Assembly: GCA_046262915.1 (NCBI GenBank)
Contig: JBHELW010000319.1
Coordinates: 1-41,932, forward strand
DNA length: 41,932 bases
From: Mycobacteriales bacterium
GTDB lineage: Bacteria > Actinomycetota > Actinomycetes > BP-191
Reading direction: 5' to 3'
The position numbers were made by a program, and so were the translations under genes. Positions 1,906-40,640 of the stretch are shown piece by piece. The notes beneath the pieces are model-generated. The model saw nothing but the letters and a program-made list of their open reading frames with translations, was not told the origin of the DNA and made no database searches. Position 1 is the first letter of the stretch. Each line of letters starts with the position of its first letter.

Positions 1906-2451
1906 TCACCTCCGCATGGCACAGGCCGAGCCATCGCGGCCGAAGGTCTCTTCGATCTCGGCGCAGGCGGCCGCCCCCGGAAAGCAGCCGCTCGGCGCGC
2001 AGACCGCCATGCTGCGAAATTCACATGGCGCGTACACGCCATCGGTCGCCCTTCGACGCCACAGCTCGCAGGCTCCCGGTCCGCGATCACCGCCGGCGCA
2101 GGAGCCGAATCCGTCGGGTCTAGCTGTGCACCAGAAGCCCTGAGATGTTCGCGATTCGGATTCTGGCCCACCACAACGCACAACGATCGTGACCTCGGGC
2201 TTCCGCACCTGCTGGTAGCCGTAGCTCGTCCGGAAATAGGCGGACGACGAGCCAGCGGCGCTGTCCTGGATCTCATAGCCGCCCGGGCACAGCTCGTTCG
2301 CGCGTTCGTTGGCCGCCGCGATCGCCTCGCCTTGTCCGCCGAACGCGTTGCCGCGGACGTTGACCACGTAGAGGTCCTTGCGGATGCGCGTGGCGTCGAC
2401 GCTGACGCAGGCCCCGGTCAGCACCGTCACCACGACCAGAATCTTCCTCAT
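1906..2451 (-). CDS. Lipoprotein, paralog of 1606..1902 with a Cys-rich C-terminal extension
   Basis: Lipobox VLTGAC. The domain ending EVTIVVRC matches the downstream gene, and about 70 Cys-rich residues follow. The stop lies 3 nt before the next start. Confidence 0.7.
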   Translation of the reverse strand: MRKILVVVTVLTGACVSVDATRIRKDLYVVNVRGNAFGGQGEAIAAANERANELCPGGYEIQDSAAGSSSAYFRTSYGYQQVRKPEVTIVVRCGGPESESRTSQGFWCTARPDGFGSCAGGDRGPGACELWRRRATDGVYAPCEFRSMAVCAPSGCFPGAAACAEIEETFGRDGSACAMRR

Positions 2452-2518
2452 CCCGCCACGCTATCGCCGGGCGCGCCCTTCCGCAATCCGCCGCGTTTCG
2501 CGGCACCCGAGGTCCTCC

Positions 2519-3163
2519 ATGGCCGATGACCGGTCCGACGCCGATCGCGCGATCCGCGAGCTCGCGCACCAGCCCAACAGGACGACGTGCGGCCTGCAGC
2601 GGACCGCCCTGGTCCGCAGCCTCCACCCGCGGATCGCCGCGCTCGACCTCGGCTCGCTGCGGGTGCTCGACCGGCTGGCAACCCGGCTCGAGCAGCTGCG
2701 GGCCGTGCACGGCGATCTCGAGCTCGACGTGGTGCACGGCCGGCTGGCCGCGCGGTTCGGCCACGAGGCGGTCGACGGCCTGCTCTACGCGATCAGTGAG
2801 CAACTCGCCGTTGAGGACCAGGACCACGCCGAGCTCCGCGAGGCCGCGCGGGCCGAGCTTCTTACCCAGCCCGGTGCAGGCGAGGCGATCCGCGAGTACC
2901 GCGAGCGAGTGCGCCAGTCGGTGCGGCTAGGCGCGGCGCCGATCGTGCGGCTGCCGCGTCGGCCGATCTGCAACGGGCTCACGGCGCGCTGGTGCCCGCG
3001 CTGCGGCGACTGCAGCTGCGGCGAGGGTGAGGCCGTCGAGCTGAACGATCCCGGATGCCCACTGCACGCGCCGGGTAGCAAGCACGCCGAACCGCCCGAC
3101 GAGATCGGCGGGGTCGTCGGCGCGTACGAGGAACTGACGGTCGAGCTCGGAGGCGAGGGCTGA
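2519..3163 (+). CDS. Hypothetical protein with C-terminal Cys cluster (zinc-ribbon-like)
   Basis: ATG 2519 inside ORF 2378..3163. C-terminal segment is CNGLTARWCPRCGDCSCGEG...CPLH. The stop overlaps a downstream ATG (TGATG). Confidence 0.6.
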   Translation: MADDRSDADRAIRELAHQPNRTTCGLQRTALVRSLHPRIAALDLGSLRVLDRLATRLEQLRAVHGDLELDVVHGRLAARFGHEAVDGLLYAISEQLAVEDQDHAELREAARAELLTQPGAGEAIREYRERVRQSVRLGAAPIVRLPRRPICNGLTARWCPRCGDCSCGEGEAVELNDPGCPLHAPGSKHAEPPDEIGGVVGAYEELTVELGGEG

Positions 3164-3216
3164 TGGGCAAGCGCCCGAACCCGACGCGCAACGTGCCGCA
3201 CCCCGCGCCCTTCGGC

Positions 3217-3225
3217 GGGGGGGGG
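3217..3225 (+). repeat. G9 homopolymer at a reading-frame break
   Basis: Counted directly. The ORF from ATG 3163 (frame 1) stops at 3243, while coding-like GC3 continues in frame 2 after the tract. Confidence 0.9.
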
Positions 3226-3349
3226 CGTCGACGGCATGCGTAGCCGATCGGACTTCGCGGGCTCGACGGCGCGCTTGAAGCGGCGCACCCGTTCGCACGC
3301 CGAGTGGACGGCCAACACGGTGAAGCGCAGCGACATCACCGCACCGAAG

Positions 3350-3358
3350 CCCCCCCCC
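3350..3358 (+). repeat. C9 homopolymer at a second reading-frame break
   Basis: Counted directly. Frame 2 (ATG 3236) is coding-like up to the tract. The methylase frame (frame 0) is open from 3324 and coding-like from 3360. Confidence 0.9.
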
Positions 3359-3494
3359 GCTGTTCAACCTGCACGAGGATCAGAACGACGAGCCGCTGGA
3401 GGTCGAGCCGCAGCCGATCTACGGCCAGTACCCGCGCGGGCTGATCGCGAAGCTGCTCCCCCTGCTGCGCTGCGAGCGCCGCGAGATCCTGCAC

Positions 3495-3881
3495 GTGTGC
3501 TCCGGCGCGCTTCCGCGCGGGGAAGGGATCCGGGTCGACGTGCGGCCTGAGGCTCGACCGGACATCCTGGCGGACGGTCGCGCGCTGCCGCTGCGCGACG
3601 GCTCGATCGCCGCGGTGATGTGCGACCCGCCGTACTGCGAGGAGTACGCCGAATCGCTGTACGGGGTCGAGTACCCGCGGCCGGCGCACCTGCTCGCCGA
3701 GGCCGCGCGCGTCGTGCGGCCCGGTGGCCGCATTGCCTTCGTGCACTACATCGTGCCGGCGCCGCCGGCGGGAACGCGCGTGGTGCGGATCCTCGGGCTG
3801 TCGACAGGGTTCAACATGCCGATGCGCGCGCTCACCGTGCTCGAACGCGACCAGGCCGAGCTCGCGCTGGGGGTCGGGTGA
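3495..3881 (+). CDS. SAM-dependent DNA methyltransferase (N6-A/N4-C type, DPPY motif); the ORF as it stands lacks its N-terminus
   Basis: Motif I-like ILHVCSG spans the track start, and motif IV is AVMCDPPY. The same frame is open and protein-like from 3360 (PIYGQYPRGLIAKLL) but has no ATG/GTG/TTG. See the frameshift finding. Confidence 0.7.
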   Translation: MCSGALPRGEGIRVDVRPEARPDILADGRALPLRDGSIAAVMCDPPYCEEYAESLYGVEYPRPAHLLAEAARVVRPGGRIAFVHYIVPAPPAGTRVVRILGLSTGFNMPMRALTVLERDQAELALGVG

Positions 3882-4537
3882 TGGCCCAGCTCGAGCTCTT
3901 ACTGCCGCGGCCGCCTGCGCTGGTCGCCGCGCTCTACGTGGAGGCAGGCGGCCCCTACTTCCGCATGCGGGGCGTCGACCCGTGGGACGTCGAGCGCGAC
4001 GCGCGGACCTACGCGGGGCCGCTGCCGATCGTCGCGCACCCGCCGTGCGGTCCGTGGGGTTGCCTCGCGCACCTCTACCAGGGCGCCGAGCACGACTGCG
4101 CGCCGGCAGCGATCGCGGCGGCCAGGGAATGGGGGGGGGTGGTCGAGCATCCCGAGCGCTCGCGGCTGTGGCGCGCTCTCGATCTCCCCGAGCCCGACGA
4201 GCCCGCTGACCTGTTCGGCGGATTCACGGTCGCCGTCGAGCAGTGCGCGTGGGGTCATCTCGCGCGCAAGCGCTCGTGGCTCTATGTCGTCGGCGTCCCG
4301 AGGAGCGTCGTGCTGAGCGGCGTCAGAACCGGCGGCACGCCGACGCACTGGATCTCCGGATTCCGCTCCTCGACCTCGCGCAATCCGAAGCACTACCAGC
4401 AGAACGGCAGCGCCGTCCCGCCCGGCATCAAGGTCTGCAGCGCGCAGCAGCGCCGCCGCACCCCGCCGGCGTTCGCAGCGTGGTTGGTCGAGCTCGCCGC
4501 GAGCGCGCGGCGACCGGCCGTGAGCAGGGCCGCCTGA
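3881..4537 (+). CDS. Compact cytosine-C5-methyltransferase-like protein (divergent)
   Basis: ATGA overlap with the upstream gene. Motif-like blocks appear in C5-MTase order: YVEAGG (I), AHPPCGPWG (IV), VVEHPERS (VI), CAWGHLARKRSWLY (VIII), NGSAVPPG (X). Only 218 aa. Confidence 0.45.
   Translation: MAQLELLLPRPPALVAALYVEAGGPYFRMRGVDPWDVERDARTYAGPLPIVAHPPCGPWGCLAHLYQGAEHDCAPAAIAAAREWGGVVEHPERSRLWRALDLPEPDEPADLFGGFTVAVEQCAWGHLARKRSWLYVVGVPRSVVLSGVRTGGTPTHWISGFRSSTSRNPKHYQQNGSAVPPGIKVCSAQQRRRTPPAFAAWLVELAASARRPAVSRAA
4131..4139 (+). repeat. G9 homopolymer, in frame (encodes W-G-G-V)
   Basis: Counted directly. This is the third 9-nt G/C run within 1 kb. Confidence 0.9.
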
Positions 4538-5670
4538 TGGACTGGAGCAACGAGCGGTTCGTGCGCCTGTACACCCGCGACACGCCCGAGTGGCTGTGCT
4601 GGTCATGGCAGGCGCGCGCGCTGTGGCCGCACCTGATCCGGAAGGCCGACCGCAGCGGCGTGATCGCCAACAAGCTCGGCGCGCGCGGCCTGGCGGCGCT
4701 GGTCGGGCTGCCGGTGGATCTGGTGGAGGCCGCCCTTCCCGACCTGGTCGCGGACGGCTGCCTCCAGGACCACCAGCTCGGCTACGTGATCCCGAACTAC
4801 ATCGAGGCCCAGGAGACCCCGCAGTCCGACAAACAGCGGCAGCGCGAAAGTAGGGAGCGTCGCAGGGTCGTCACAAATCGTGACAGCGAGTCACGAATCG
4901 TGACCGAACGTCACGCGGTGTCACGCGATGTCACTCCGATCCGATCCGATCCGATCCGATCCGAAGATCTCCCTCCCGCGCGCGATCCAGCGGTACCGGC
5001 CCTGGCACCTGCGCCGGCCCAGCCCCTACTCCCCGGCCCGCTCGTCACGACCCCCGCGGAGATCGCGAGGGCTCAGCCGGCCTCGCGCGAGGTCGGAAAA
5101 CCGGCAACCACCGGCGAGCCGACCCTCGACCAGCTCTGGTCCGAGCTCGAGCAGGCCCGCCAGCGCGCTGCGGTCGCCCGCGGGGTCGCGATCCGCCCGC
5201 TCGTCGCGCACGATCGCGGCCGACGCGACCTCGCGGAGGCGCTCGTCGAGGCCGCTCGCGTCGGCGAGCGCGCCAAGCTGGTGGCCGACGTGCGGCACGC
5301 CATCGCGGCCGCGGAGGCCGAGTCACGCGTCGCGCCCGAGCCCGGCAAGCCCGATCGGCTCCAGTGGTTCACGGGCGCCGTGTTCAGCCCGGACAACTTC
5401 CGGCGCCTCGCTGGCACGCCGTTGGCGAAGCGATCGGCGGACGCAGGGGCGAAGCGTCGTCGGGAAGTCGCGACGCAACCGGCCTCCGCCGATCGCAAGC
5501 GGACCGCTGCCGAGCTCGCCGAGCTGAGCGCGATGGCGAACCACGTCGCGGCGCTCCCCACAGCCGAGCTCGTGAAGCGATTTGGCTCGCCCGACGGAGC
5601 GCGAGCGCCGCCGGCGAGTGCTGCACCCACCGATCCCGACGACGAACCCCGACGAAAGGCAGCAACGTGA
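4537..5670 (+). CDS. Replication initiator/organizer-like protein
   Basis: TGATG junction. The N-terminal about 100 aa (ERFVRLYTRDTPEWLCWSWQARALWPHLIRKADRSGVI) resemble phage replisome-organizer winged-helix N-termini. An iteron array lies in the linker coding region. Confidence 0.5.
   Translation: MDWSNERFVRLYTRDTPEWLCWSWQARALWPHLIRKADRSGVIANKLGARGLAALVGLPVDLVEAALPDLVADGCLQDHQLGYVIPNYIEAQETPQSDKQRQRESRERRRVVTNRDSESRIVTERHAVSRDVTPIRSDPIRSEDLPPARDPAVPALAPAPAQPLLPGPLVTTPAEIARAQPASREVGKPATTGEPTLDQLWSELEQARQRAAVARGVAIRPLVAHDRGRRDLAEALVEAARVGERAKLVADVRHAIAAAEAESRVAPEPGKPDRLQWFTGAVFSPDNFRRLAGTPLAKRSADAGAKRRREVATQPASADRKRTAAELAELSAMANHVAALPTAELVKRFGSPDGARAPPASAAPTDPDDEPRRKAAT
4870..4964 (+). repeat. 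Candidate origin: seven GTSAC pentamers at exact 10-bp spacing followed by (TCCGA)6
   Basis: GTCAC/GTGAC at 4870, 4880, 4890, 4900, 4910, 4920 and 4930. The first four form two GTCAC-N5-GTGAC palindromes. TCCGA x6 at 4935-4964. Confidence 0.55.
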
Positions 5671-6689
5671 ACGTCCTGCTCTGGCACCTCGACGGCAAGC
5701 TGCCGAACCTCGCCCTGATGCGCATCGCTGCGCACCATCGCGAGCGCGGCGATCGGGTCGAGCTCCGCCGCGTGAGCAACGGCGCGGCGCTCGACGTCAA
5801 GGCGTGGCGCGAGATCGAGCCTCGGTTCGGTGACCCGGCATGGGATCGCGTCTACGCGAGCGCGATCTTCGAGCGCACGCGGCCGCTGGTCGAGCGGTTC
5901 GCGAAGCTGTACCCGACCGCCGAGCTCGGCGGCACCGGCACGTGGAGCCTCGGCCGCACGCTCGCCGACGTCGGCGTCCCCGTGGACGGTCCACTCGACT
6001 ACTCGAGCTACCCCGACTTCACCGCGTCGATGGGTTTCACCATGCGCGGCTGCCGGTTCAAGTGCTCGCACTGCGTCGTTCCGCGCAAGGAGGGACGCGC
6101 CCGCGCACACGGCACCGTCGCCGAGATCTATCGCGGCGCGCCGTGGCCACCGCACCTGCACCTGCTCGACAACGATTTCTTCGGCGTGGAGACCTGGCCC
6201 GATCGCATCGCCGAGATCCGCGACGGAGGGTTCCGCGTCTCGTTCACGCAGGGCATCAACGTCCGCGTCTCCAGCGACAAAGTCGCCGCCGCGATCGCGA
6301 GCGTTGACTTCCGCGCCGACGACATGGAGACGCGCCGGATCTATACCGCCTGGGACGCGCTGGGTGACGAGCGAGTGGTGTTCCGCGGCCTCGACTGCCT
6401 GAAGGCGCACGGCATCAAGCCCGACTGGATCATGGTCTACATGCTCATCGGGCACGCGTCCGGCGAGACTCACGAGCACCGCGATCACCGGCGCCGCCGT
6501 CTTCGCGAGTACGGCTGCCGGCCCTACCCGATGCCGTTCGTGCGGACGCCCGAGCTGCTCGGGTTCCAGCGCTGGGTGGTCGACGCGTACGACAAGGGCA
6601 TCCCGTGGGAGCGATGGAAGGCCGCTCGCTACAACCCGCGGCGTCTCGGAGATCGATTCTCGCTGCCGCTGTTTGGGGCGAGCTCATGA
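5667..6689 (+). CDS. Radical SAM enzyme with N-terminal Rossmann/B12-binding-like domain
   Basis: GTGA overlap start. CX3CX2C motif is GCRFKCSHCVVP. 340 aa. Confidence 0.75.
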   Translation: MNVLLWHLDGKLPNLALMRIAAHHRERGDRVELRRVSNGAALDVKAWREIEPRFGDPAWDRVYASAIFERTRPLVERFAKLYPTAELGGTGTWSLGRTLADVGVPVDGPLDYSSYPDFTASMGFTMRGCRFKCSHCVVPRKEGRARAHGTVAEIYRGAPWPPHLHLLDNDFFGVETWPDRIAEIRDGGFRVSFTQGINVRVSSDKVAAAIASVDFRADDMETRRIYTAWDALGDERVVFRGLDCLKAHGIKPDWIMVYMLIGHASGETHEHRDHRRRRLREYGCRPYPMPFVRTPELLGFQRWVVDAYDKGIPWERWKAARYNPRRLGDRFSLPLFGASS

Positions 6690-7144
6690 CCCGCGACCTC
6701 GCGCTCGACGACCCCGAGGTGCGCGCCGACATCGCGCACCGCGAGGCGAGCAGGCGCGACAGCACGCGGAGCTCGCTCGTCGACTGCGACGAGTGTGGGT
6801 GCCACGTGAAGGCGCACGACCTCGCGAGCGGCCAGTGCAACACGCCGGCCTGCGACTGCCAGGAGTTCCAGCGGGGCGGCGGGCCGACGTGGTCGCCGCC
6901 GGCGATCGTCGAGCGCCACCCCTGCGCAAAGAGCTGCGGGACCATCGTCGACGTTCCGCAGGAGGCGCTCGACGCCTTCGAGGCGGTGAACGTGCTGCTC
7001 GGCAAGCGCGGCCAGTCCGTGCCCAAGTCGAAGGGGTTCATCTGCGACGCCTGCAAGCGCCGCGACGACGAGCTCGTCGCGGCGCTGCGACGACCGCACC
7101 AGCAACAGCACCTCGGGCTCGCGCCCGGGAAAGGACGACCGTGA
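6686..7144 (+). CDS. Cys-rich hypothetical protein
   Basis: ATGA overlap. Cys clusters: CDECGCH, CNTPACDC, CAKSC, CDAC. Confidence 0.6.
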   Translation: MTRDLALDDPEVRADIAHREASRRDSTRSSLVDCDECGCHVKAHDLASGQCNTPACDCQEFQRGGGPTWSPPAIVERHPCAKSCGTIVDVPQEALDAFEAVNVLLGKRGQSVPKSKGFICDACKRRDDELVAALRRPHQQQHLGLAPGKGRP

Positions 7145-7407
7145 CACGCGAATTCCCCGAGGGAGACATCGATGAACTGCTCGAGGACTCGACCGAGATC
7201 GACTCGCAGCCGTGGCGTCATGGCCGCAAGGTCCGCCTGGTGTTCGAGGCAGATGGCGCGCACTGGGCCGCGTGGTTCGACTCGCACCACGATGAGGGCA
7301 TCCAGACCTACGGCCCGGTGAAGGCGGTCAAGGTCCACCAGGTCGAGCGCACGGTAAAGGTGTGGGAGAAGGTGCCCGACCCGGCGCCAGAGGGGTCGGC
7401 GCCGTGA
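7141..7407 (+). CDS. Hypothetical protein (88 aa)
   Basis: GTGA overlap start inside ORF 6673..7407. Protein-like only from this point on. Confidence 0.55.
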   Translation: MTREFPEGDIDELLEDSTEIDSQPWRHGRKVRLVFEADGAHWAAWFDSHHDEGIQTYGPVKAVKVHQVERTVKVWEKVPDPAPEGSAP

Positions 7408-7646
7408 AGCTGGACCTCGACGAGATCGAGCGCGAGCACCGTGAACAGGCCGACGAGGGGCACAGCTACTACCCGCACTGCGGCCCGGAGGTCGTGCTCG
7501 CCCTGGTCGCAATCGCGCGCGCCGCCGAGCGGTTCGTCGACCAGCAGGGCAAGCGTGTGCTCGACCGCGAGCTCATGGGCACGGCCGACTTCGAGGGCGA
7601 CCTGTTCGTCGAGCTGGTCAAGGCGCTCGAGGCGGCCGGCCGATGA
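7404..7646 (+). CDS. Hypothetical protein (80 aa)
   Basis: GTGA overlap start inside ORF 7362..7646. Confidence 0.55.
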   Translation: MKLDLDEIEREHREQADEGHSYYPHCGPEVVLALVAIARAAERFVDQQGKRVLDRELMGTADFEGDLFVELVKALEAAGR

Positions 7647-8557
7647 AGCCCGTCCCCGCCATCGTCGAGCCGGCGCAGGTCGACGTCGACGCCGCGGCCG
7701 AGCACATCATCGTGTCGCTCGCCGGCGAGAAAGACGCCGACCGCACCGCCGTTCGTCACGAGGGACTCGCCGCCGCAGCGCGCGAGACCGCGAAGCTCCG
7801 TCGCCTCGAGGTCGGCCGCTGGCTGAACAAGGTCCGCCCGACGTGGCCTGCGAGCGGCCCGAAGGCGCGCGGGTGGAGCGAGTTCCTCGCGCGCGTCGGT
7901 CTCGACGACTCGACCGCGGTGCGGTACATGGACGCGGCCCGGACCAGCACGGTCCACGGCGAGCCGCCCCGGCCGAGTTCTCCACAGGATCCGGCTCACG
8001 GCCGCCAGGTGAGCCAGATCTCGGGTGAGGCGCCGCCGGGCGACGTCGCGCCGGTGCTCTCGCTGGTGCCGAGCCCGGACGCCGAGGTCGAGATCGACCG
8101 CGACACGTGGTGCACCCCGCCGTGGCTCACCGAGCCGCTCGGACGATTCGACCTGGATCCGTGCAGCAACGAGCGCTCGCAGGTGCAGGCCGCGACGACG
8201 TTCGTGCTCGACCTCGGCATCGACGGGCTGGCTCGCGGCGAGGACGTCAACCCGGGCTGGCGCGTGTTCATCAACCCGCCCTACAGCGACGTGCCGCCCT
8301 GGATCGCCGCGTACAAGCACACGCGGTTCTGCTTCCTGCTCAAGCTCGACACCAGCACGAAGTGGTTCGCCGAGCTCCACGCGGCGAGCGCGCTGATCCT
8401 GATCCCTCGCCGCCGCGTGAACTTCATCCCGCCGCCGGGCGTGCCGCCCGAGCGAGCGGTCGCCCAGCAGTTCCCGCATGCGCTGTTCTACGCCAACGCC
8501 GAGGACGCGACCGACGCGATCCGCGCGATGTGCTGGAGCTGGCGCGTCGACCACTGA
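7643..8557 (+). CDS. Phage Dam-type DNA N6-adenine methyltransferase with N-terminal DNA-binding-like domain
   Basis: WCTPPW, FDLDPCSN and VFINPPYSDVPPW blocks are typical of the phage Dam family. ATGA overlap start. Confidence 0.8.
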   Translation: MKPVPAIVEPAQVDVDAAAEHIIVSLAGEKDADRTAVRHEGLAAAARETAKLRRLEVGRWLNKVRPTWPASGPKARGWSEFLARVGLDDSTAVRYMDAARTSTVHGEPPRPSSPQDPAHGRQVSQISGEAPPGDVAPVLSLVPSPDAEVEIDRDTWCTPPWLTEPLGRFDLDPCSNERSQVQAATTFVLDLGIDGLARGEDVNPGWRVFINPPYSDVPPWIAAYKHTRFCFLLKLDTSTKWFAELHAASALILIPRRRVNFIPPPGVPPERAVAQQFPHALFYANAEDATDAIRAMCWSWRVDH

Positions 8558-12475: not shown

Positions 12476-12990
12476 TCCGGCTCGCCACCATCGTGAGCAC
12501 CGCAGATGCCGGCGCGGCGCGCGGCGCGCTCGAGGGCGCCATCGAGCTCGAGCTCGGCGCCGGCGGCTGGACGGCAGCCGAGGACCTGCCCGCGATCTTC
12601 GCCGAGCGCACGAAGCGCACGGTCTCGCCGCGGATGGCCGCCCGGCTGAACGTCCAGGACAGCGACGGCACCCTGATCGTGTCCTTCCGGTCCGATCTCG
12701 CGCCCGGCACCCCGGTGGCGTACGTGGACCAGGCCATCGAGCAGCAGCGCAAGCCGGCGCTGCACGTCGTGCTGCCCGCCGGCGAGCGATCGCGGGTCAC
12801 AGAGGACCTGCGCAAGGGCGTCGTGGCCTGGCTCGCGGAAGAGAAGATCAACACGCTGCACGTCACCGGGCCGCGCGAGGTCGACGAGCCGGGCATCCAG
12901 CAGGCCACGCGGGACGCGCTGGTGTGGCTGCTCGAGGACGAGCTCGCGCCGGCGATCGGCGCCGCGCCGCAGCCCGCTGCCGGGGGCTGA
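12472..12990 (+). CDS. YpsA-like SLOG-family protein (putative molybdenum-carrier family) with degenerate GGQTG motif
   Basis: NVQDSDGTLIV, QRKPALHV, and VAWLAEEKINTLHVTGPREVDEPGI match the family blocks. The N-terminal IVSTADAGAARGALEGAIELELGAGGW aligns to ISGGQTGADRAAL..GGW. Confidence 0.65.
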   Translation: MIRLATIVSTADAGAARGALEGAIELELGAGGWTAAEDLPAIFAERTKRTVSPRMAARLNVQDSDGTLIVSFRSDLAPGTPVAYVDQAIEQQRKPALHVVLPAGERSRVTEDLRKGVVAWLAEEKINTLHVTGPREVDEPGIQQATRDALVWLLEDELAPAIGAAPQPAAGG

Positions 12991-14651
12991 TGGCCGGTCG
13001 CCGGCCCCGCGCCGAGCCGCACGAGCGCGTGAAGGCCGAGCGGCGCGTGCTTTCGCCTGACGAGCGCTGGGCTACCGAGATCCGCGAGCGCATCCTCGCC
13101 GACTGCCACCCGTTCCAGCGCGCCGCCGTCGAGGATCCGTCGCGCCGCGTGTCGATCCTGGCTGGCCGCGGCGGCGCCAAGACGACGACGCTGCGGTGTC
13201 GCGCAGCGATCAAGCTCACGTCGATCCGCGAGGCGGAGATCCTGTTCTTCGCCCGGACCAAGGGCCACGCCAAGAAGCTCTACTGGAACCCGCTCCAGCG
13301 GATGAACGAGCACTACGGGCTCAAGTTGAGGTTCAAGGAGAGCGAGCAGACGGCCACCTGCACGCGCACCGGCAGCGTCATCACGATCAAGGGGATGGAG
13401 GATGACTCGGACATCGAGATCCACCGCGGCTACCCGTTCAACGAGGTCCAGGTCGACGAGGCGGCGAGCCATCCGGTAGCTCGCGTCGCGAAGCTCAAGG
13501 ACGAGATCGTCGGCCCGCGACTCGGCGAGCGCGGAGGCTGTTTCGTGCTCGCCGGAACCGCCGGATTCGATCTGAAGGGCGACTTCTACGACGCGACGTT
13601 CCCGGGCTCGAAGGAGCACGCGCGGTACGTCGATCGCGGAAACGAGGGGTACGAGGAGCGCTACTGGTCCTCCCACTACTGGACCGCGAAGATGGTCTAC
13701 GAGCTGCCGCGAGCTCGGCAGCTCTACCCGGCGATCGCCTCGAACTGGGAGGAGGCGCTCCTCGAAAAGACCAAGAAGGGCTGGTCCGACGACAACCCGA
13801 TCTGGCTGCGCGAGTACATCGCGCAGTGGGCCGCGAACGACACCAACATGGTGTTCCACTACCGGCCCGAGCTGAATCAGTGGGACCCGTTCGGCGGCGC
13901 GAAGCTCGAGGGGATTCAGGGCCTGGTGATCGCGCTCGCGAAGCTCCGCGAGATGGGGCTGGTCGACCTGCGGTTCGTCTACGGCGGCGACATGGGAACC
14001 GCTCTTCCGTACGCGCTGAACATCTTCGCGTTCTCGCCGAAGGATGCGAAGCGCGGCATCTGGCACGTGATGTTCTTCGAGCGGACCGGGATGCACGCGC
14101 GTCCGATCGCCGAGCTCCACATGGGGCCCGAGGCGGCCGAGCGAGCGTTCCTCCACCGGCCGGCTGAGCCGTACGCGGGCGCGCTCGGCGTCACCGGCTG
14201 GCCCGACGCGCAGGTGATGGACACCGATCTCGCCACGCTGGCCGAACTGACGAACACCTACGGCCTGCCCTACAAGAAGGCGGAGAAGAACCCACACTAC
14301 AAGAAGGGCGCGATCGAGCTCACCAACGGCGACCTGATCGACAGCCGGATCCACGTGATCAAGGGCTCGCCGCTCGAGGACCAGCTGACCAGCCTGCAGT
14401 GGCGCGAGAACCGCTTCGGGCACGTCGAGGAGGATCAGCGCCAGGCATCCCACAGCTCGGACACCCTGGTGTACGGCCGCAAGGAGATCGCCGGACTGTT
14501 CGAATCCGGCGCGGTCGAGCAGGAAGCTGGCCCCGGCGCCCCGACCCCGCCCCAGCCCGTGACGCGCCGCGAGCCGGGGATCTATAGCCAACCCGCGGGG
14601 GGTGGCTTGAGTACGACGCGCCGCCCTGTAGATCCTTGGCGCAAGCTGTGA
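12990..14651 (+). CDS. terL: Terminase large subunit
   Basis: Walker A-like ILAGRGGAKTT and Walker B-like EVQVDEA. 553 aa, with the portal gene downstream. Confidence 0.85.
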   Translation: MAGRRPRAEPHERVKAERRVLSPDERWATEIRERILADCHPFQRAAVEDPSRRVSILAGRGGAKTTTLRCRAAIKLTSIREAEILFFARTKGHAKKLYWNPLQRMNEHYGLKLRFKESEQTATCTRTGSVITIKGMEDDSDIEIHRGYPFNEVQVDEAASHPVARVAKLKDEIVGPRLGERGGCFVLAGTAGFDLKGDFYDATFPGSKEHARYVDRGNEGYEERYWSSHYWTAKMVYELPRARQLYPAIASNWEEALLEKTKKGWSDDNPIWLREYIAQWAANDTNMVFHYRPELNQWDPFGGAKLEGIQGLVIALAKLREMGLVDLRFVYGGDMGTALPYALNIFAFSPKDAKRGIWHVMFFERTGMHARPIAELHMGPEAAERAFLHRPAEPYAGALGVTGWPDAQVMDTDLATLAELTNTYGLPYKKAEKNPHYKKGAIELTNGDLIDSRIHVIKGSPLEDQLTSLQWRENRFGHVEEDQRQASHSSDTLVYGRKEIAGLFESGAVEQEAGPGAPTPPQPVTRREPGIYSQPAGGGLSTTRRPVDPWRKL

Positions 14652-14911
14652 CCGCCCAGGAAGCTGCCGAGCTGCTCGATACCATCGCGGATCGCGCCCC
14701 CAAGCTGCGCGCGGCCGGGGTGTTCGGCGAGGTCAGGCTCGGCGACATCGTGTTCATCGTCGCGCCGGCGGACCCCGGCCCCGGCCTCGCCGAGGAGAGG
14801 CCGCTGATCGATCCGCTCAAGGATCCGGCGACGCACGGCCACTTCGGGCGCGGCGCCGCGGATCGTGTCCCCCGGTTCACGCGGACGCCGCTCATCCCGG
14901 GTGAGAAGTGA
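14648..14911 (+). CDS. Hypothetical small protein between terminase and portal
   Basis: GTGA overlap start (track start is TTG 14636). Confidence 0.5.
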   Translation: MTAQEAAELLDTIADRAPKLRAAGVFGEVRLGDIVFIVAPADPGPGLAEERPLIDPLKDPATHGHFGRGAADRVPRFTRTPLIPGEK

Positions 14912-16845
14912 TGCTGAACCCGTTCGAGCACTGGTACGACGCGACGCAGGACGACTGCCACGCGCAGGTGTTCCGCTTCGTGAACAAGATCGAGCAGGAG
15001 CAGGCCGACGTCTATGACCGGCTGATGACCCTCGAGTCGCTGTACGACAAGCACAGCCCCGAGGGCAGCCTCGCCGAGGACCCGCGCGCGGCTGGCGAGA
15101 TGCTCAACGACATGTACGAGAACGTCGTTGCGTCCAACGTCGACACCACGTACGCGTCGATCGCGACGGCCGAGATCCGGGCGCGTTTCCTCACCGACGG
15201 CGCCGGCTGGTCCACCCAGCGCCGCGCTGCGAAGATGGAGCTCTACGCCGAGGGCCTCGGCAAACAGCTCGCCATCCACCGGAAGTGCCGACTGGCGTTC
15301 CGCGAGGCGGCCAAGATCGGCGGCGGGCTGGTCAAGGTCTACGCCGACCGGTGGGATCAGGTGTGCGTCGAGCACATTCCCCTCGTGGAGATCGTGGTTC
15401 CCGACGCCGATCACCAGAGCGGCGCGCCACCGCTGCAGCTGCACCACGTGATGCGGAACTACGACCGCGACCGGCTCAAGGCCGAGTTCCCCGAGTACGC
15501 CGACGAGATCGAGGCCTTCCGAGGGACGACGCTGCCGGCCAACGTGATGGACCGGCACCCCACCCGGTCGAGCTGGGCGCACAACAAGGTCACCGTCATC
15601 GAGAGCTGGCGGCTGCCGATCGGCGTCCGTCCGGCCAAGGACGGCGAGAAGAGCTCGAAGGGCGCCAGATACGTCCCGGGCCGGCACACGATCACGATCG
15701 CCACCCGGACGCTGCTCGACGAGCCGTACCACAAGCCGTACCACCCGATCGCGGTGATCGAGTGGTCGGCGCGGAACGGTTCGTTCTTCCCGATCAGCGG
15801 CTCCGAGCGGATCGTCGGCCTGCAAAGGGCCCTGAACCTGCGCAACTGGACCATCGAGCAGATGCTCCAGCAGAACGCCCGGGTCACGACCTGGGTGCGC
15901 CCGGCCGACTTCGGGGCCGTGACGAAGATGCAGGCGACCGAGGTCGGCAACTTCATCCCGATCAAAGGCGAGTACCCCAAGACGGAGACCCCGCCCGCGG
16001 TGCACCCCGAGCTGCTCAACAGCCGGATCCAGCTCAAGCAGTCGGCGGCGGACGAGTTCGGCCAGAGTCAGGCCCGGCAGCGCGGCGAGATCCCCGCGGG
16101 GCTCCAGACCGGCGCCGCGGTGCGCGAGGCGACCAGCGCCCAGACGCAGCGCTACGCGCCCCAGGAGGCTGCGTTCGAGCAGCTCGTCCTCGACGTCAAC
16201 TGGCTGATGATCGACGCGTGCAAGGACCTCGGCAAGGCGGCGCCGACCGTGCTCGAGAGCCGCTGGCAGCAGCCGATCGGGTGGGGGGAGGTCGACATGG
16301 GCCAGGTGAAGATCCAGATCGCCGCCGCTTCGACGCTGCCGCGCACCGCCGCCGGCCGCGAGCAGACGATCCTCGAGTGGGCGCAGGCGGGGGTGATCAG
16401 CACCGACACGTTCCGGCGACTGATCGGACATCCCGACCTCGAGAGCGAGATGTCCCAGTACACCGCCGCGCTCGACGTGATCGACCTCGAGATCGAGGCC
16501 ATCCTCGACGGCGGAACCGCGGTCCCCGAGCCATACGACAACCTGAAGATGATCGAATGGCGCGCGACGCAGATGTACAACCGGATCCGCCCGAGCGGCC
16601 GCCGGAAGGGCGCGCCGGAGGCCGTGCTCGAGTCCTTGCGCGATTATATCGACCAGGCCGCCTTCCTGGCCTCGATGCAGGCGCAGAACGACAACGCCGC
16701 ACCCGGCGCGATGCCCGGTGCCGCACCCGCGGGCCCGCCCGGCCAGGACGCCATCGCGACTCCGCCCGGCGGTGGGCCGCCGACTGCCGCGCTGTCGCCC
16801 CAGGCGATGCAACTCCGCGGTACGGCGATCCCGTCCGCCGCCTGA
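14908..16845 (+). CDS. Portal protein
   Basis: 645 aa, immediately after terL and before the scaffold and capsid genes. Called from position and size only. Confidence 0.7.
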   Translation: MMLNPFEHWYDATQDDCHAQVFRFVNKIEQEQADVYDRLMTLESLYDKHSPEGSLAEDPRAAGEMLNDMYENVVASNVDTTYASIATAEIRARFLTDGAGWSTQRRAAKMELYAEGLGKQLAIHRKCRLAFREAAKIGGGLVKVYADRWDQVCVEHIPLVEIVVPDADHQSGAPPLQLHHVMRNYDRDRLKAEFPEYADEIEAFRGTTLPANVMDRHPTRSSWAHNKVTVIESWRLPIGVRPAKDGEKSSKGARYVPGRHTITIATRTLLDEPYHKPYHPIAVIEWSARNGSFFPISGSERIVGLQRALNLRNWTIEQMLQQNARVTTWVRPADFGAVTKMQATEVGNFIPIKGEYPKTETPPAVHPELLNSRIQLKQSAADEFGQSQARQRGEIPAGLQTGAAVREATSAQTQRYAPQEAAFEQLVLDVNWLMIDACKDLGKAAPTVLESRWQQPIGWGEVDMGQVKIQIAAASTLPRTAAGREQTILEWAQAGVISTDTFRRLIGHPDLESEMSQYTAALDVIDLEIEAILDGGTAVPEPYDNLKMIEWRATQMYNRIRPSGRRKGAPEAVLESLRDYIDQAAFLASMQAQNDNAAPGAMPGAAPAGPPGQDAIATPPGGGPPTAALSPQAMQLRGTAIPSAA

Positions 16846-26867: not shown

Positions 26868-28142
26868 ATGGGCTTCGACTTCGGCGACGTGTGGAATCCG
26901 CTCGAGCAGATCAAGGACCTCTGGAACGGAGGTTCCAGCGCGCTCGGGAACACCGGGGGCGGCACCGGCACATACGCGAACGTCCGTGGTCCGGACGGCA
27001 GACCGGTTCAGATGGTGACGCCGTACGGCAAGCTGCTCTCCCAGCAGACCGGATTGGCAGCGCCGGTGGACGTCGCCGATCCCACGCGCCAGGCGCTGCT
27101 TGCGCAGCAAGGCGGGCTCGCGGGCCAGTTCGCCGACCAGGCGCAGACCGGGTACAACGCGTATGGCCAGCAAGCGCAGGGCGCACTGGCTGCGCTGCAG
27201 CGCCAGGCGTCGGGACAGGACTCCGTTTCGGCGATGCAGCTGCGCCAGGCGCTCGGCCAGCAGCTCGCGCAGCAGCGCTCGTTCGCCGCTGGCGCCTCGC
27301 CGCGCAACGCCGCCGGCGCCGCGCGCACCGCGGCGATCCAGATGGGGCGTGCATCGACCGCGGCGGCCGGTCAACAGGCGGTTGCCGGACAGGCTGAGCG
27401 CAACGCGGCGAATCAGCAGTACGGCCAGCTGGTCGGGCAGCTCCGCGGCCAGGATCTCAGCGCGGCGACGCAATCGCGGCAGAACGCGCTGGGCGGTTAC
27501 GGGGCCCCGAATACGGGTGTCGCGCAGCCGTCGTGGATTCAGCAGTACGGCCCGGCGATCGCGGGCGGTGCCGCGGCGGCGGCTTCCGATCGCCGGCTGA
27601 AAACGGACCTCGGGCCCGGCGACGACAAGGCAAATGCCGCGATCGACGCGCTCCGGCCGTACGCCTACCGGTACAAAGACCCGCAGCAGTACGGCACCGG
27701 GCCGCAGCTCGGCACCACGACGCAGGACCTCTCTCGCGCCGGGCTCGGCCAGGCCGTGGTCAAGACGCCCGCCGGCGAGATGGTCGACCCGGGCAAGCTC
27801 AGCGGCGCGAACACCGCCATGATCGCGGCGCTCGGTCGTCGCGTCGCCGAGCTCGAGGGGCAGAGCCCAGCCGAGCGGTACGACAAGAGCCCGCTCGGGC
27901 AGAGGCAGGAGCGAATGGATCTGGTGCGGGAGGGCGATCCGCGAGCCTACGCCGCGCAGCAGGCGCTCGATCACCGACGTTCACTCCTGCAGGAAGTCGA
28001 TCTGCGCCGAGCCGGCGCGTACCCTGGTGGCTTCCGGCCGCTGCCCAGCGACGAGTACTGGCAGACCCCCGGGCAGCGGCACGCCGCGGCCCTCGCGGCC
28101 CTCAGGCGCGCGGGTGCGCTGGTGGACAACGGGGGGGAGTAG
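26868..28142 (+). CDS. Fibre-like protein with peptidase S74 intramolecular chaperone domain
   Basis: SDRRLKTDL autocleavage-type motif, followed by ALRPYAYRYKD...GTTTQDL...MIAALGRRVAELE. Gln/Ala-rich N-terminal half. RBS GGAGAC. Confidence 0.65.
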   Translation: MGFDFGDVWNPLEQIKDLWNGGSSALGNTGGGTGTYANVRGPDGRPVQMVTPYGKLLSQQTGLAAPVDVADPTRQALLAQQGGLAGQFADQAQTGYNAYGQQAQGALAALQRQASGQDSVSAMQLRQALGQQLAQQRSFAAGASPRNAAGAARTAAIQMGRASTAAAGQQAVAGQAERNAANQQYGQLVGQLRGQDLSAATQSRQNALGGYGAPNTGVAQPSWIQQYGPAIAGGAAAAASDRRLKTDLGPGDDKANAAIDALRPYAYRYKDPQQYGTGPQLGTTTQDLSRAGLGQAVVKTPAGEMVDPGKLSGANTAMIAALGRRVAELEGQSPAERYDKSPLGQRQERMDLVREGDPRAYAAQQALDHRRSLLQEVDLRRAGAYPGGFRPLPSDEYWQTPGQRHAAALAALRRAGALVDNGGE

Positions 28143-34656: not shown

Positions 34657-34995
34657 CGAGGACTTAGCTCCACTCCCGTTCCCAGCCGGGTCGTCCTGGG
34701 AACGGGATGAAGCTGGGTCGTTTCCAGCGGCGAGCTCGAGCACGCGCTCGAAGGTGGCCGCCACCGCGACGCAGGACCCAACCGGAGTGTCCGGGCACCA
34801 CGTGAGCACCCAGACCTCGCCGGTCGCCCGGATCGCCGCGAGGTCCTCAGGGCGGATCGCCTCATCGCGCGGCTCGCCGCCAGCGTCCGCCGCGAGCAGG
34901 TGGCTCTCGATCCAGGTCTCCAGCGGGAGGTAGTCGCCCCGGTGGGGGTTGTGCTGGAGCGAGAGCTCGATGTGCTTGGGCCACTGGACCGGCAT
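34615..34995 (-). CDS. Hypothetical protein translationally coupled to int; its 3' end runs through the tRNA fragment
   Basis: ATGA overlap with the int stop. The C-terminal ...KGDSNPHGVTH is the antisense reading of the tRNA T arm. Confidence 0.5.
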   Translation of the reverse strand: MPVQWPKHIELSLQHNPHRGDYLPLETWIESHLLAADAGGEPRDEAIRPEDLAAIRATGEVWVLTWCPDTPVGSCVAVAATFERVLELAAGNDPASSRSQDDPAGNGSGAKSSCAKGDSNPHGVTH

Positions 34996-36005
34996 CAGTT
35001 CGCCTCATCGTGTAGCACGCGCTGCATCGCCCGCGTGCGCCCGTCCTGCTCGGCCCCGGGGGCCAGGTAGTGGCGCCGCGTGACCTTGGGCCCGATCTGC
35101 CCCAGCGCCGCCGCGACGTGCTCGACCGACACGGCGCCGGCGGAGATCGTCGCCTGGGTGCCGCGCAGGCCGTGCGGGCAGACCTCGGGCACCTTGGCGA
35201 CCGCGCACAGCCGGCGCACGTGGTACGCGACCCAGTGCCGATCGCGCCCCCCGAACAGCAGCTCGTCGCCGCGGCGCCCGGCGGCGAGCGCGGCGAGCGG
35301 GGCGCGCAGCACCCGGGGCACCTCGAGCGCGCGGTCGCCCGCAGGCGTCTTGGCGCGCTCGATCCAGAGCACCCGGGCTCGGTCGTCCACGTCGCGCACC
35401 GCCCGGCCCGCGATCTCGCCGGCGCGCATCCCCATCAGCAGGGCCATCGCCGCGGCGAGCCCGGCCTCGCTCTTCTCCGCCAGGGCGACGGCCGCGTACC
35501 GGCGCGCCTCGTCGATCCGCAACTTCTTCTTGCCGCGCCGGCGCGGGCCGGTCGGGACCAGGCCCGCGAACGGGTCGCCGCCGGCGAGCCAGCCCTGCCC
35601 CCGGCACCACGCCGCGAACCGCCGCGCGGTGCCGAGCTCGCCGAACTGGGTGTCGGGGCCGACGTCCGCGCAGCGCGCCTTCCACAGCTCGCGGCCGAGC
35701 TCGGGCGTGAGAGCGCTGAGCGGCCGATCGGGGCCGTCGGTCTGCAGCAGCCCCGCGAGGCGGTAGCCGATCGTCACGACCGACCGGAGCCCCCGCGCCC
35801 GGCAGTGCTCGACGTAGGCGTCAACGGTGCTGGCGATCGTGCGGCCCTCGATCTGGGCGCGGGCGATGCCGAGTGCCGTGATCGCCTCGGCCTCTGTCGC
35901 AAAGCTCGGAGAGCTTCGCTCACCGTCTGCTCGATCGATCGTGATCCGCCATCGGTTGCCGTGGGGGTAGGGTCCATTGACTCGCTCCTGTTTCTTCCGT
36001 CGCAC
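34995..36005 (-). CDS. int: Tyrosine integrase
   Basis: HGLRGTQ (HxxR), RRHYL (catalytic Tyr region) and an arm-binding-type N-terminus GNRWRITIDRADGERSS. Confidence 0.85.
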   Translation of the reverse strand: MRRKKQERVNGPYPHGNRWRITIDRADGERSSPSFATEAEAITALGIARAQIEGRTIASTVDAYVEHCRARGLRSVVTIGYRLAGLLQTDGPDRPLSALTPELGRELWKARCADVGPDTQFGELGTARRFAAWCRGQGWLAGGDPFAGLVPTGPRRRGKKKLRIDEARRYAAVALAEKSEAGLAAAMALLMGMRAGEIAGRAVRDVDDRARVLWIERAKTPAGDRALEVPRVLRAPLAALAAGRRGDELLFGGRDRHWVAYHVRRLCAVAKVPEVCPHGLRGTQATISAGAVSVEHVAAALGQIGPKVTRRHYLAPGAEQDGRTRAMQRVLHDEAN

Positions 36006-39270: not shown

Positions 39271-40164
39271 TCAGTCGCGACTGCCCTCCTTCCCGGCATC
39301 CTCGACCCATTCCGGATCCGCGATCGCCGGCCCGAGGTCGTGCAGGATCTCGAGCGGCTCGATGCCGGTCGAGTACCCGCCCCACAGGTTCGTGGCCTCG
39401 TAGATCTGCAGCCGCTCCAGCCATGCGAGCCGCAGCTTGTCGCCCTGCTCCAGCGTCGTCGGCGTGAGCTCGTAGACCTGGACCACGTACGGCGGCACGT
39501 TCTCGACCGCCACGATGTACACCTCGCGCGGCGCCCGGCCGCCGTTCTCGTGCTTGATCGCCGCGCGCTGGTCGGCGAGCTGCGCGTGGTAGCCCATGTT
39601 CGCGGCGTCGCGCACGAACCGCCACGGCGCGGCACACCTGGTGGTCTTGAGCTCGACTAGGTGGTCGGCGCGGCGCGCGTCGGGCGTCGACTGCCGGGCC
39701 CGGCCGAGCTCGGACCAGACGATGGAGCGCTCGTACACCATGCCGGGCCCGAACAGCAGGCGTGCGGCGACCGGATGGCCGTGTAGCGCGTCGCGGATCC
39801 GCTGCGCGTGGTCGTGCTCGGCGATGGTCAGCATCGCCTTGCCGGCGTGCTTGACCTGGAACTCCTTCCACACGTCGCCCGAGCGCGGGGCGATCTTCTT
39901 CGGGTTCTTCTTCGCCGGCTGGTTCCAGACAGCGATCGGCTTGTCGAAGGTGACCGCGTGCGCGCCCGTGCCGAGCCGGCGCGCCAGCGTGTCGGCGCCG
40001 TCGCCCTGGAACGCGTGGAGGCAGAGCGCGCCGCACGCGCCGGCCGCCTTCAGGTGGTGAAAGCGCGCCGGCAGCGTGCGCGGGTCGACCACCTTGCGGC
40101 GCGGGGCGTCGAGGTCGGGCTCCTCGTCATCGAAGGGCGAGGTGTCGTCGGCGTCCAGCATCAT
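39271..40164 (-). CDS. PD-(D/E)xK exonuclease (RecE/exonuclease VIII-like)
   Basis: STPDARRADHLVELKTTR (D...ELK) and GYHAQLADQ. ATGA-coupled start at 40164. Confidence 0.6.
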   Translation of the reverse strand: MMLDADDTSPFDDEEPDLDAPRRKVVDPRTLPARFHHLKAAGACGALCLHAFQGDGADTLARRLGTGAHAVTFDKPIAVWNQPAKKNPKKIAPRSGDVWKEFQVKHAGKAMLTIAEHDHAQRIRDALHGHPVAARLLFGPGMVYERSIVWSELGRARQSTPDARRADHLVELKTTRCAAPWRFVRDAANMGYHAQLADQRAAIKHENGGRAPREVYIVAVENVPPYVVQVYELTPTTLEQGDKLRLAWLERLQIYEATNLWGGYSTGIEPLEILHDLGPAIADPEWVEDAGKEGSRD

Positions 40165-40640
40165 CGGGTTCCTTCCTGCGCCTCGCGGCGCGCGATCTCG
40201 GCCAGCTCCTCGGCGTCGGGCCCGCCGCCGGTCTCGGTCGGGCGCGATCCGTTCGTGGCCCTGCGCGGGCGCTCGGGGGCGATCCGAATGACGTCCATGT
40301 CCTCGAGCTTCTCCGTCGTCGGGTCGCGCATTCGCCCGTGGACCACCACGAGCGTGATCCAGCCGCGCCAGTCGCCCCAGTGATCGGAGCCGCAGATCTT
40401 GGTGAGCTCCTTGGCCATCGTGGCATTGAGGCCGAGCTTCTTGCTCTTGCCGCGGAACGCGATATAGAGCGTATCCTTGGCGCCGCCGGGGTTCTTGATG
40501 CGGCACTTCCCGCTGTCGACGATCTCGACATCGAGGGTGGTGCCCGGTCCGCCGAGGTCCTCGGCATAGAGGTACTCGGGGTCCATCCGCTTGATCACGG
40601 TCCTCCAGTGGGGTTTGCGGTCGGGCTTGCGGTCAGCCAT
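40161..40640 (-). CDS. Hypothetical protein coupled to the exonuclease (159 aa)
   Basis: ATG 40640 with GAGGAG RBS. DLGGPGTTLDVEIVD...LGLNATMAKELTKICGSDHWGDWRGWITLVV. Confidence 0.55.
   Translation of the reverse strand: MADRKPDRKPHWRTVIKRMDPEYLYAEDLGGPGTTLDVEIVDSGKCRIKNPGGAKDTLYIAFRGKSKKLGLNATMAKELTKICGSDHWGDWRGWITLVVVHGRMRDPTTEKLEDMDVIRIAPERPRRATNGSRPTETGGGPDAEELAEIARREAQEGTR

Follow-up and report, generated by a model that had tools for sequence, protein, structure and literature searches.

The question raised by this locus is how a methyltransferase gene can be interrupted by two homopolymer runs, each leaving it exactly one nucleotide out of frame, while the whole of its sequence is conserved as protein. 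The gene lies in contig JBHELW010000319.1 of GenBank assembly GCA_046262915.1, a metagenome-assembled genome (MAG) of a Mycobacteriales bacterium. The window analysed is this complete contig of 41,932 bases, which carries a phage genome and is the largest of the 384 contigs in the 2.37-Mb MAG (70.8% GC). The best explanation, to which we give a probability of roughly 0.6 from comparison of the gene with its relatives, is slipped-strand, phase-variable expression of an orphan phage methyltransferase that would here be OFF at both tracts. The gene and its parts are as follows.

3163..3881, + strand: methyltransferase gene (PHROG 3816), in three successive +1 frames; the enzyme is not translatable as sequenced
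3163..3216, + strand: piece 1, start of the conserved leader (MGKRPNPTRNVPHPAPFG); R4, N6, R9, V11 and P12 are invariant in alignment A1
3217..3225, + strand: G9 tract, site 1, the GGGG of 'FGGGGVDG'; the in-frame G8 plus one base
3226..3349, + strand: piece 2, mid-leader (VDGMRSRSDFAGSTARLKRRTRSHAEWTANTVKRSDITAPK), in the +1 frame, supported by the alignment and by dN/dS
3350..3358, + strand: C9 tract, site 2, the PPP of 'PKPPPL'; the in-frame C8 plus one base
3359..3881, + strand: piece 3, the Rossmann-fold catalytic core with the stop codon; no usable start before GTG 3495
3486..3506, + strand: motif I, the S-adenosylmethionine (SAM)-binding loop ILHVCSG; H, V, C, S and G are invariant in A1
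3624..3635, + strand: motif IV, DPPY, the catalytic motif of amino-methyltransferases; D154, P155, P156 and Y157 are invariant

The frame opened by ATG 3163 reads MGKRPNPTRNVPHPAPFGGG and meets a stop 8 codons past the G run. The middle (+1) frame proceeds through GVDGMRSRSDFAGS to APKPPP, and the next +1 frame carries PLFNLHED, YGQYPRG, ILHVCSG and CDPPY until the TGA at 3879-3881. The G9 and the C9 each shift the frame by +1, and the bases after the runs, CGT and GCT, hold no stop. Deleting one base per run, in what is called here the comparison reading, gives an open frame of 238 amino acids (aa) with no other stop or indel, as the initial annotation had predicted for G8 plus C8. The coordinates of the runs, the frames and the coupling of the start to the upstream gene given there were all reproduced on recomputation; ATG 3163 takes the A of the TGA of the upstream open reading frame (ORF) at 3161-3163, forming TGATG. 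The first ATG, GTG or TTG of the core frame is indeed GTG 3495, the V of HVCSG in motif I. An internal restart after the C9 was therefore ruled out, there being no start codon ahead of motif I. A start at ATG 3236, with the G9 serving as ribosome-binding site, was ruled out as well, since residues 1-24 show conservation at the protein level and purifying selection acts on them.

The 238-aa comparison protein has 624 homologs at E ≤ 0.001. The best of these are 229-251 aa long, with 99-100% query cover and 73-92% identity (top E 3e-140), and the residues across both tracts agree with the family consensus FGGGGVDGMRSRSDFAGS and PKPPPL in the alignment. Against four intact homologs, the rate of synonymous substitution (dS) is 0.35-0.78 and the ratio of nonsynonymous to synonymous rates (dN/dS) is 0.13-0.19 for the whole gene and 0.06-0.25 within residues 1-66. 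These ratios, together with the lack of any other lesion, indicate that all three pieces are coding and under purifying selection, and that the protein includes the leader ahead of ATG 3236. On this comparative evidence the three-frame reading is a real gene.

The two runs are part of a cluster of three, the third lying in the next gene. The neighbouring features are:

2378..3163, + strand: upstream gene with a Cys-rich C-terminus and no family match, translationally coupled to the methyltransferase start
3881..4537, + strand: next gene, phrog_12600, function unknown; its ATG 3881 overlaps the methyltransferase stop
4131..4139, + strand: third G9, in frame, TGG GGG GGG GTG, encoding WGGV; both Gly codons are the minority codon GGG

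The clustering had been described as non-random, and the MAG bears this out. In its 2.37 Mb there are 3 runs of 9, all within these 923 bases, beside 5 runs of 8 and 39 of 7, and the window has just one other run of at least 7, a G7 at 28131. The chance of three random points falling this close is approximately 5e-7 by an arithmetic estimate. One of the five 8-mers of the MAG, on a host contig (G000 C286:678-685), is a G8 that stands two nucleotides (nt) 5' of an ATG (GGGGGGGGATATG).

The same excess is seen in the relatives of the phage. Across 55 loci, 21 runs of at least 8 were counted in the 36.4 kb of the gene region and 7 in the 175 kb of flanks (odds ratio 14, p 3e-11). The run lengths within the gene peak at 9, while those in the flanks fall geometrically. 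In the window phage GGG makes up 20% of Gly codons and CCC 30% of Pro codons, thus the runs need minority codons, and these minority-codon runs have been kept across a dS of 0.35-0.78. The runs in the methyltransferase are therefore over-represented beyond what composition and codon usage account for, as in contingency loci. The phrog_12600 family served as a control: in 28 phage contigs it had no long run and no homopolymer frameshift, and none of the 28 IMG/VR homologs has a run of at least 7 inside the ORF. As these homologs lack long runs, the third G9, which was confirmed to be in frame, is private to the window phage. Gene 3881-4537 may be a second slippage-prone gene beside the methyltransferase, currently ON.

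Intact full-length homologs were found, and among the relatives the tracts vary in length, both in and out of frame. DNA of the relatives (numbered here with the prefix L) was obtained through exact protein look-up, which is biased to called ORFs, and also through peptide patterns downstream of the tracts, which are blind to the upstream frame. The tract states are:

Site 1, in frame: G8 in L026, L027-31, L032/33 and L134; G9 in L035; G7 in L036 and L133
Site 1, interrupted: L025 (G5TG4)
Site 1, out of frame: G9 in the window, L131 and L132; G10 in L037/38/39/66; G7 in L005
Site 2, in frame: C8 in L025, L026, L027 and L131; C9 in L034/40, where the preceding codon differs
Site 2, out of frame: C9 in the window, L134, L042, L048 and L049; the tract is absent in the rest
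Site 3, a C tract in the catalytic core (VHY..PNPPP): in frame, C9 in L007 (3427); out of frame, C10 in L012 (3433) and L015 (3426)

The closest clade has 83-91% nucleotide identity in the gene and comes from short-read assemblies of independent SRA runs. All four combinations of the two tracts are present in it: G8/C8 in L026 and L027, G9/C8 in L131, G8/C9 in L134, and G9/C9 in the window. In the family as a whole, G/C runs account for 12 of the 13 frameshifts seen. The exception, in L067/L068 at about 1820-1845 near EYPxP, is the only non-homopolymer frameshift; it is identical in two assemblies and probably marks a genuinely broken copy. About half of the long tracts within the ORF are out of frame in the frame-independent sample, where site 2 has either a run of 5 or fewer or a run of exactly 9. 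This sample, reached through the peptide patterns, supplied the out-of-frame tracts of L005, L037, L042, L048, L049, L012 and L015. When IMG/VR was scanned with a DNA pattern for the conserved sequence immediately 3' of the G tract, the only matches were the contig of L005 and a remnant, L076 (IMGVR_UViG_3300024182_000014, 7068-7217). The latter is a deletion remnant with a 49-aa ORF, in which the leader and a G8 are kept and the core is gone.

Near-identical assemblies from different samples never disagree in tract length. The four assemblies L037/38/39/66, which are 99.9% identical, all have G10, and L027-31 all have G8/C8; L032/33, L034/40, L008/72 and L022/69 are likewise concordant pairs. 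The run lengths are therefore a property of the DNA and not random noise. This bears directly on the simplest account of the locus, which the initial annotation had offered as one of three, namely that the true phage has G8 and C8 in an intact gene and that both 9-mers were overcalled in sequencing or assembly. It is to be expected of such errors that both lesions are exactly +1 and lie in the two longest homopolymers of the contig, and no second copy of the window phage was found in the MAG that could act as a replicate. The third G9, however, 770 bases away, is in frame, and the rest of the MAG yielded no frame break linked to a homopolymer. A scan for frame changes at its 47 runs of at least 7 placed 19 clearly in frame and left 27 unclassifiable, the scan being crude; the single candidate was rejected as it is the boundary between nuoA and nuoB. 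The C8 runs that were checked are in frame or non-coding (that of contig 267 lies in frame within a tail rich in Pro and Thr), and rpoB is open up to the end of its contig. Moreover, the out-of-frame states of both G9 and C9 recur in independent assemblies of relatives. Given the concordance of replicates and the lack of other frame breaks in the MAG, random miscalls cannot explain the out-of-frame state of approximately half of the long tracts, and this account is distinctly improbable.

A second account, that of a decaying pseudogene, had also been put forward. Here the runs would be by-products of a Gly/Pro-rich leader at 70% GC, forming a hot spot in a dispensable gene, and the window copy would have died recently with no adaptive switching. 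Consistent with dispensability are the two inactivating lesions, the number of long in-ORF tracts that are out of frame, the leader-only remnant L076, the non-tract frameshift of L067 and the complete lack of runs in many relatives. What such a hot spot does not predict is the 14-fold enrichment of long runs over the flanks with its peak at 9, their construction from minority codons and their recurrence at several positions in the family. Nor do the broken copies show secondary decay, purifying selection acting on the family, and in similar phages such runs are missing from the family of the neighbouring gene. A dead gene is thus rather unlikely. It was the remaining suggestion, control of expression by slippage, that proved the best supported.

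The protein itself matches PHROG 3816, 'DNA methyltransferase', at E 1e-18. In Pfam it has only a marginal match to Methyltransf_11 (21-22 bits), and PF01555 gave no match in that search. An AlphaFold (AF2) model was made from P0001, an intact homolog that is 92% identical, with a 44-sequence alignment. The model has a confident Rossmann core from residue 90 on, with a predicted local distance difference test score (pLDDT) of 81-97. The first 80 or so residues, which include both tracts, are of low confidence, and the N-terminal leader with its two tracts is probably disordered. The top matches among solved structures are the tRNA m2G methyltransferase Trm11 and generic class I enzymes, with M.RsrI matching weakly in the DPPY region. 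Motif I is followed by DPPY on a Rossmann fold, which is the arrangement of class I (D/N/S)PP(Y/F) amino-methyltransferases. By its motifs and its predicted fold, the protein is a small orphan amino-methyltransferase with a DPPY motif, a Trm11-like Rossmann enzyme. The core, at 150 residues, leaves no room for a target recognition domain (TRD), and no restriction-enzyme family was found in the neighbouring ORFs in either Pfam or PHROGs. The phage context, with its Dam-like and radical SAM neighbours, and the PHROG label suggest that DNA is probably the substrate. The enzyme would then probably belong to the early/replication module and act in DNA modification.

The gene has several of the properties by which contingency loci are recognised: a tract of slip length (about 7 or more) within the ORF, and length variation among relatives that changes the frame while the rest of the gene is intact. 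In the proposed switch, slipped-strand mispairing during replication would add or remove a G or a C at the tracts in the leader. With G8 and C8 the full 238-aa enzyme would be made (ON), and other lengths would truncate it (OFF). The phage population behind the contig would thus be OFF at both tracts and would make no enzyme unless both contracted. The selective reason may be bet-hedging, in which protection against restriction enzymes is weighed against exposure to methylation-dependent restriction or to Pgl/BREX-like defences. The observations comprise the tracts, their frames and length differences, the intact relatives, the enrichment and the purifying selection; from them we infer slippage as the mechanism, along with its rate, its reversibility and the reason for its selection.

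Several points weigh against a switch of this kind. With both tracts OFF, reversion would be rare. No C8 was seen at site 2 in the frame-independent sample, and a near-identical pair of phages with different tract lengths was sought and none was found, the closest discordant pair being 91% identical. Since replicate samples of one phage have the same length, switching cannot be extremely fast. The closest match by structure is a tRNA m2G enzyme. Finally, there is one extra base in 11 of the 12 out-of-frame tracts, a bias that a symmetric switch would not predict.

This bias speaks for a third possibility, that the +1 state is decoded by ribosomal slippage (GGG_G, CCC_C) or by slippage of RNA polymerase, in which case the gene would be expressed at a low level and not OFF. 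A +1 shift is needed by both tracts of the window and those of L131, L132, L134, L037, L042, L048, L049, L012 and L015, as opposed to L005; a two-sided sign test gives p of approximately 0.006 by our own arithmetic, with lineages that are not independent. L042, L048 and L049 share the C9 in the +1 state with both flanks intact, at only 82-84% identity in the gene. P-site tRNAs can re-pair perfectly at +1 in either run, and CCC_N and GGG_N are classical +1 sites. The ribosomal slippage would take place on poly-Gly codons and at a PPP stall that is dependent on EF-P. It is possible that a PPP stall and the G-rich, Shine-Dalgarno-like sequence are candidate stimulators of a +1 shift. The broken copies that need this same +1 shift come from lineages down to approximately 70% identity. 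Under recoding, the +1 alleles would not be OFF, and the dosage of the methyltransferase would be tuned by tract length, as in a rheostat with two stages in series; we regard such tuning as quite doubtful. A programmed site is normally fixed, whereas in-frame G8/C8 is common in the closest relatives, where tract states are mixed and no out-of-frame arrangement is conserved. L005, with its G7, needs the opposite shift, and the CGT and GCT that follow the runs are neither stops nor known hungry codons. Two serial events of low efficiency would also give very little protein. An insertion bias of short G/C tracts is a simpler account of the direction, and such a bias has been reported for the 8-mers of poly-G tracts in Campylobacter. 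Recoding of the +1 alleles is, accordingly, an improbable alternative to slippage of the DNA.

In a second subfamily the runs occupy another place. A run of G8-G11 stands 2-8 nt 5' of the apparent start of a shorter methyltransferase, at these positions:

L011, 2932
L041, 581
L054, 1382
L073, 1356
L022/L069, 2865
L067, 1430
L021, 2807

The run is often preceded by the conserved peptide EMQxGWA. An upstream leader-like ORF with the motif RSRTDFAG is in the same frame in L011 and in another frame in L041, L054 and L073. The run may switch the gene between a long fused product and the short one, or it may be a variable Shine-Dalgarno sequence. At about 2880-2917 in L021, approximately 70 nt past its G10 and just 5' of the methyltransferase homolog, there is a tetranucleotide repeat, (AGGC)n, so that simple-sequence repeats of two types occur close to the gene.

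The phage character of the window is evident from the following genes.

12924-14651: large terminase
14908-16845: portal
34995-36005, minus strand: integrase
39271-40506, minus strand: RecE-like exonuclease
5364-6689: radical-SAM gene (phrog_9298), in the early module
7643-8557: Dam-like methyltransferase (PF05869) with a long N-terminal extension, in the early module

With a terminase, a portal, an integrase and a RecE-like exonuclease, the window is a temperate phage genome or a prophage. No terminal repeat was found in it. The phage carries several genes for nucleic-acid modification, among them the Dam-like and radical-SAM genes, and long runs are present only in the first two genes of the cluster. 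It has no nucleotide match among INPHARED phages, and a search of 400 genomes of the same class found no prophage copies. Among cultured phages no close relative of the methyltransferase was found, the matches being to archaeal viruses only, distant at 28-36% identity. Exact-protein records for the 104-aa and 218-aa products were sought, and none was found.

The window contig is linked to the organism of the MAG by binning only. Neither MutS (PF00488) nor MutL (PF01119) was found in the MAG, which is 92% complete, and a search for MutS in 12 genomes of the same family, of which several are 97-100% complete, found none either. For NucS the MAG has only a weak, sub-threshold match (C210:2124-2246). 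The putative host lineage may therefore lack canonical mismatch repair. If the MAG is the host, slippage loops and indels would be poorly repaired or unrepaired.

The locus had been likened to the Mod genes of phasevarions, in which a repeat tract in the 5' part of a methyltransferase ORF slips and moves the enzyme in and out of frame (review PMC12707154). The likeness holds for the proposed mechanism, as the Type III mod and Type I hsd phasevarions of Haemophilus, Neisseria, Helicobacter and others use such slipped-strand frame switching in the 5' part of the ORF. It does not hold for the type of enzyme. Mod is a chromosomal restriction-modification subunit with a PF01555-type domain, a TRD and a partner Res, whereas the window gene encodes a 238-aa orphan in a temperate phage, with no PF01555 or TRD, no res partner found, two serial tracts and no known regulon. 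A second parallel is pglX of the BREX-related Pgl system of Streptomyces coelicolor, which switches ON and OFF through a poly-G tract at 1e-2 to 1e-4 (PMC4365076). It too has poly-G inside a methyltransferase gene of a high-GC actinomycete, but it encodes a large host defence enzyme with one tract, where the window gene is on the phage side, small, and has two or three tracts. A third comes from the poly-G/C contingency genes of Campylobacter jejuni and Helicobacter pylori, which include Type II/IIG methyltransferases and have runs of 8-11 G or C, with a mode near 9-10. Both states, ON and OFF, are frequent among isolates (PMC6321876). In those low-GC host genomes the runs stand out, in contrast to the 70% GC phage studied here, for which the evidence is comparative only.

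Programmed +1 frameshifting of the prfB or CCC_N/GGG_N type resembles the window gene in that one extra base would have to be skipped where the P-site tRNA can re-pair at +1. The window gene differs in that its shift site is not conserved, no stop codon follows the runs and alleles in frame are frequent. Literature searches turned up no report of a phage-borne methyltransferase switched by a homopolymer. A paper on phiE125 by Woods in 2002 is said to describe what may be such an enzyme. What is distinctive here is the enzyme family, the high-GC environmental setting and the presence of two serial tracts in a probably disordered leader; the switching mechanism itself is known.

For the interpretation of assemblies, the locus suggests that methyltransferases frameshifted at G/C runs in phage sequences and MAGs should be neither auto-corrected nor labelled as pseudogenes before relatives and reads have been checked. 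Phase-variable methyltransferases are textbook in pathogens with small genomes, on the host side of the restriction-modification conflict. The gene described here would be an instance on the phage side, in an uncultured family of high-GC temperate phages from the environment, in an uncharacterised family of small enzymes and with two serial tracts. If switching does take place, the phage hedges between methylated progeny, which are protected from restriction, and unmethylated progeny, which are safe from methylation-dependent defences, and its lysogens could vary epigenetically.

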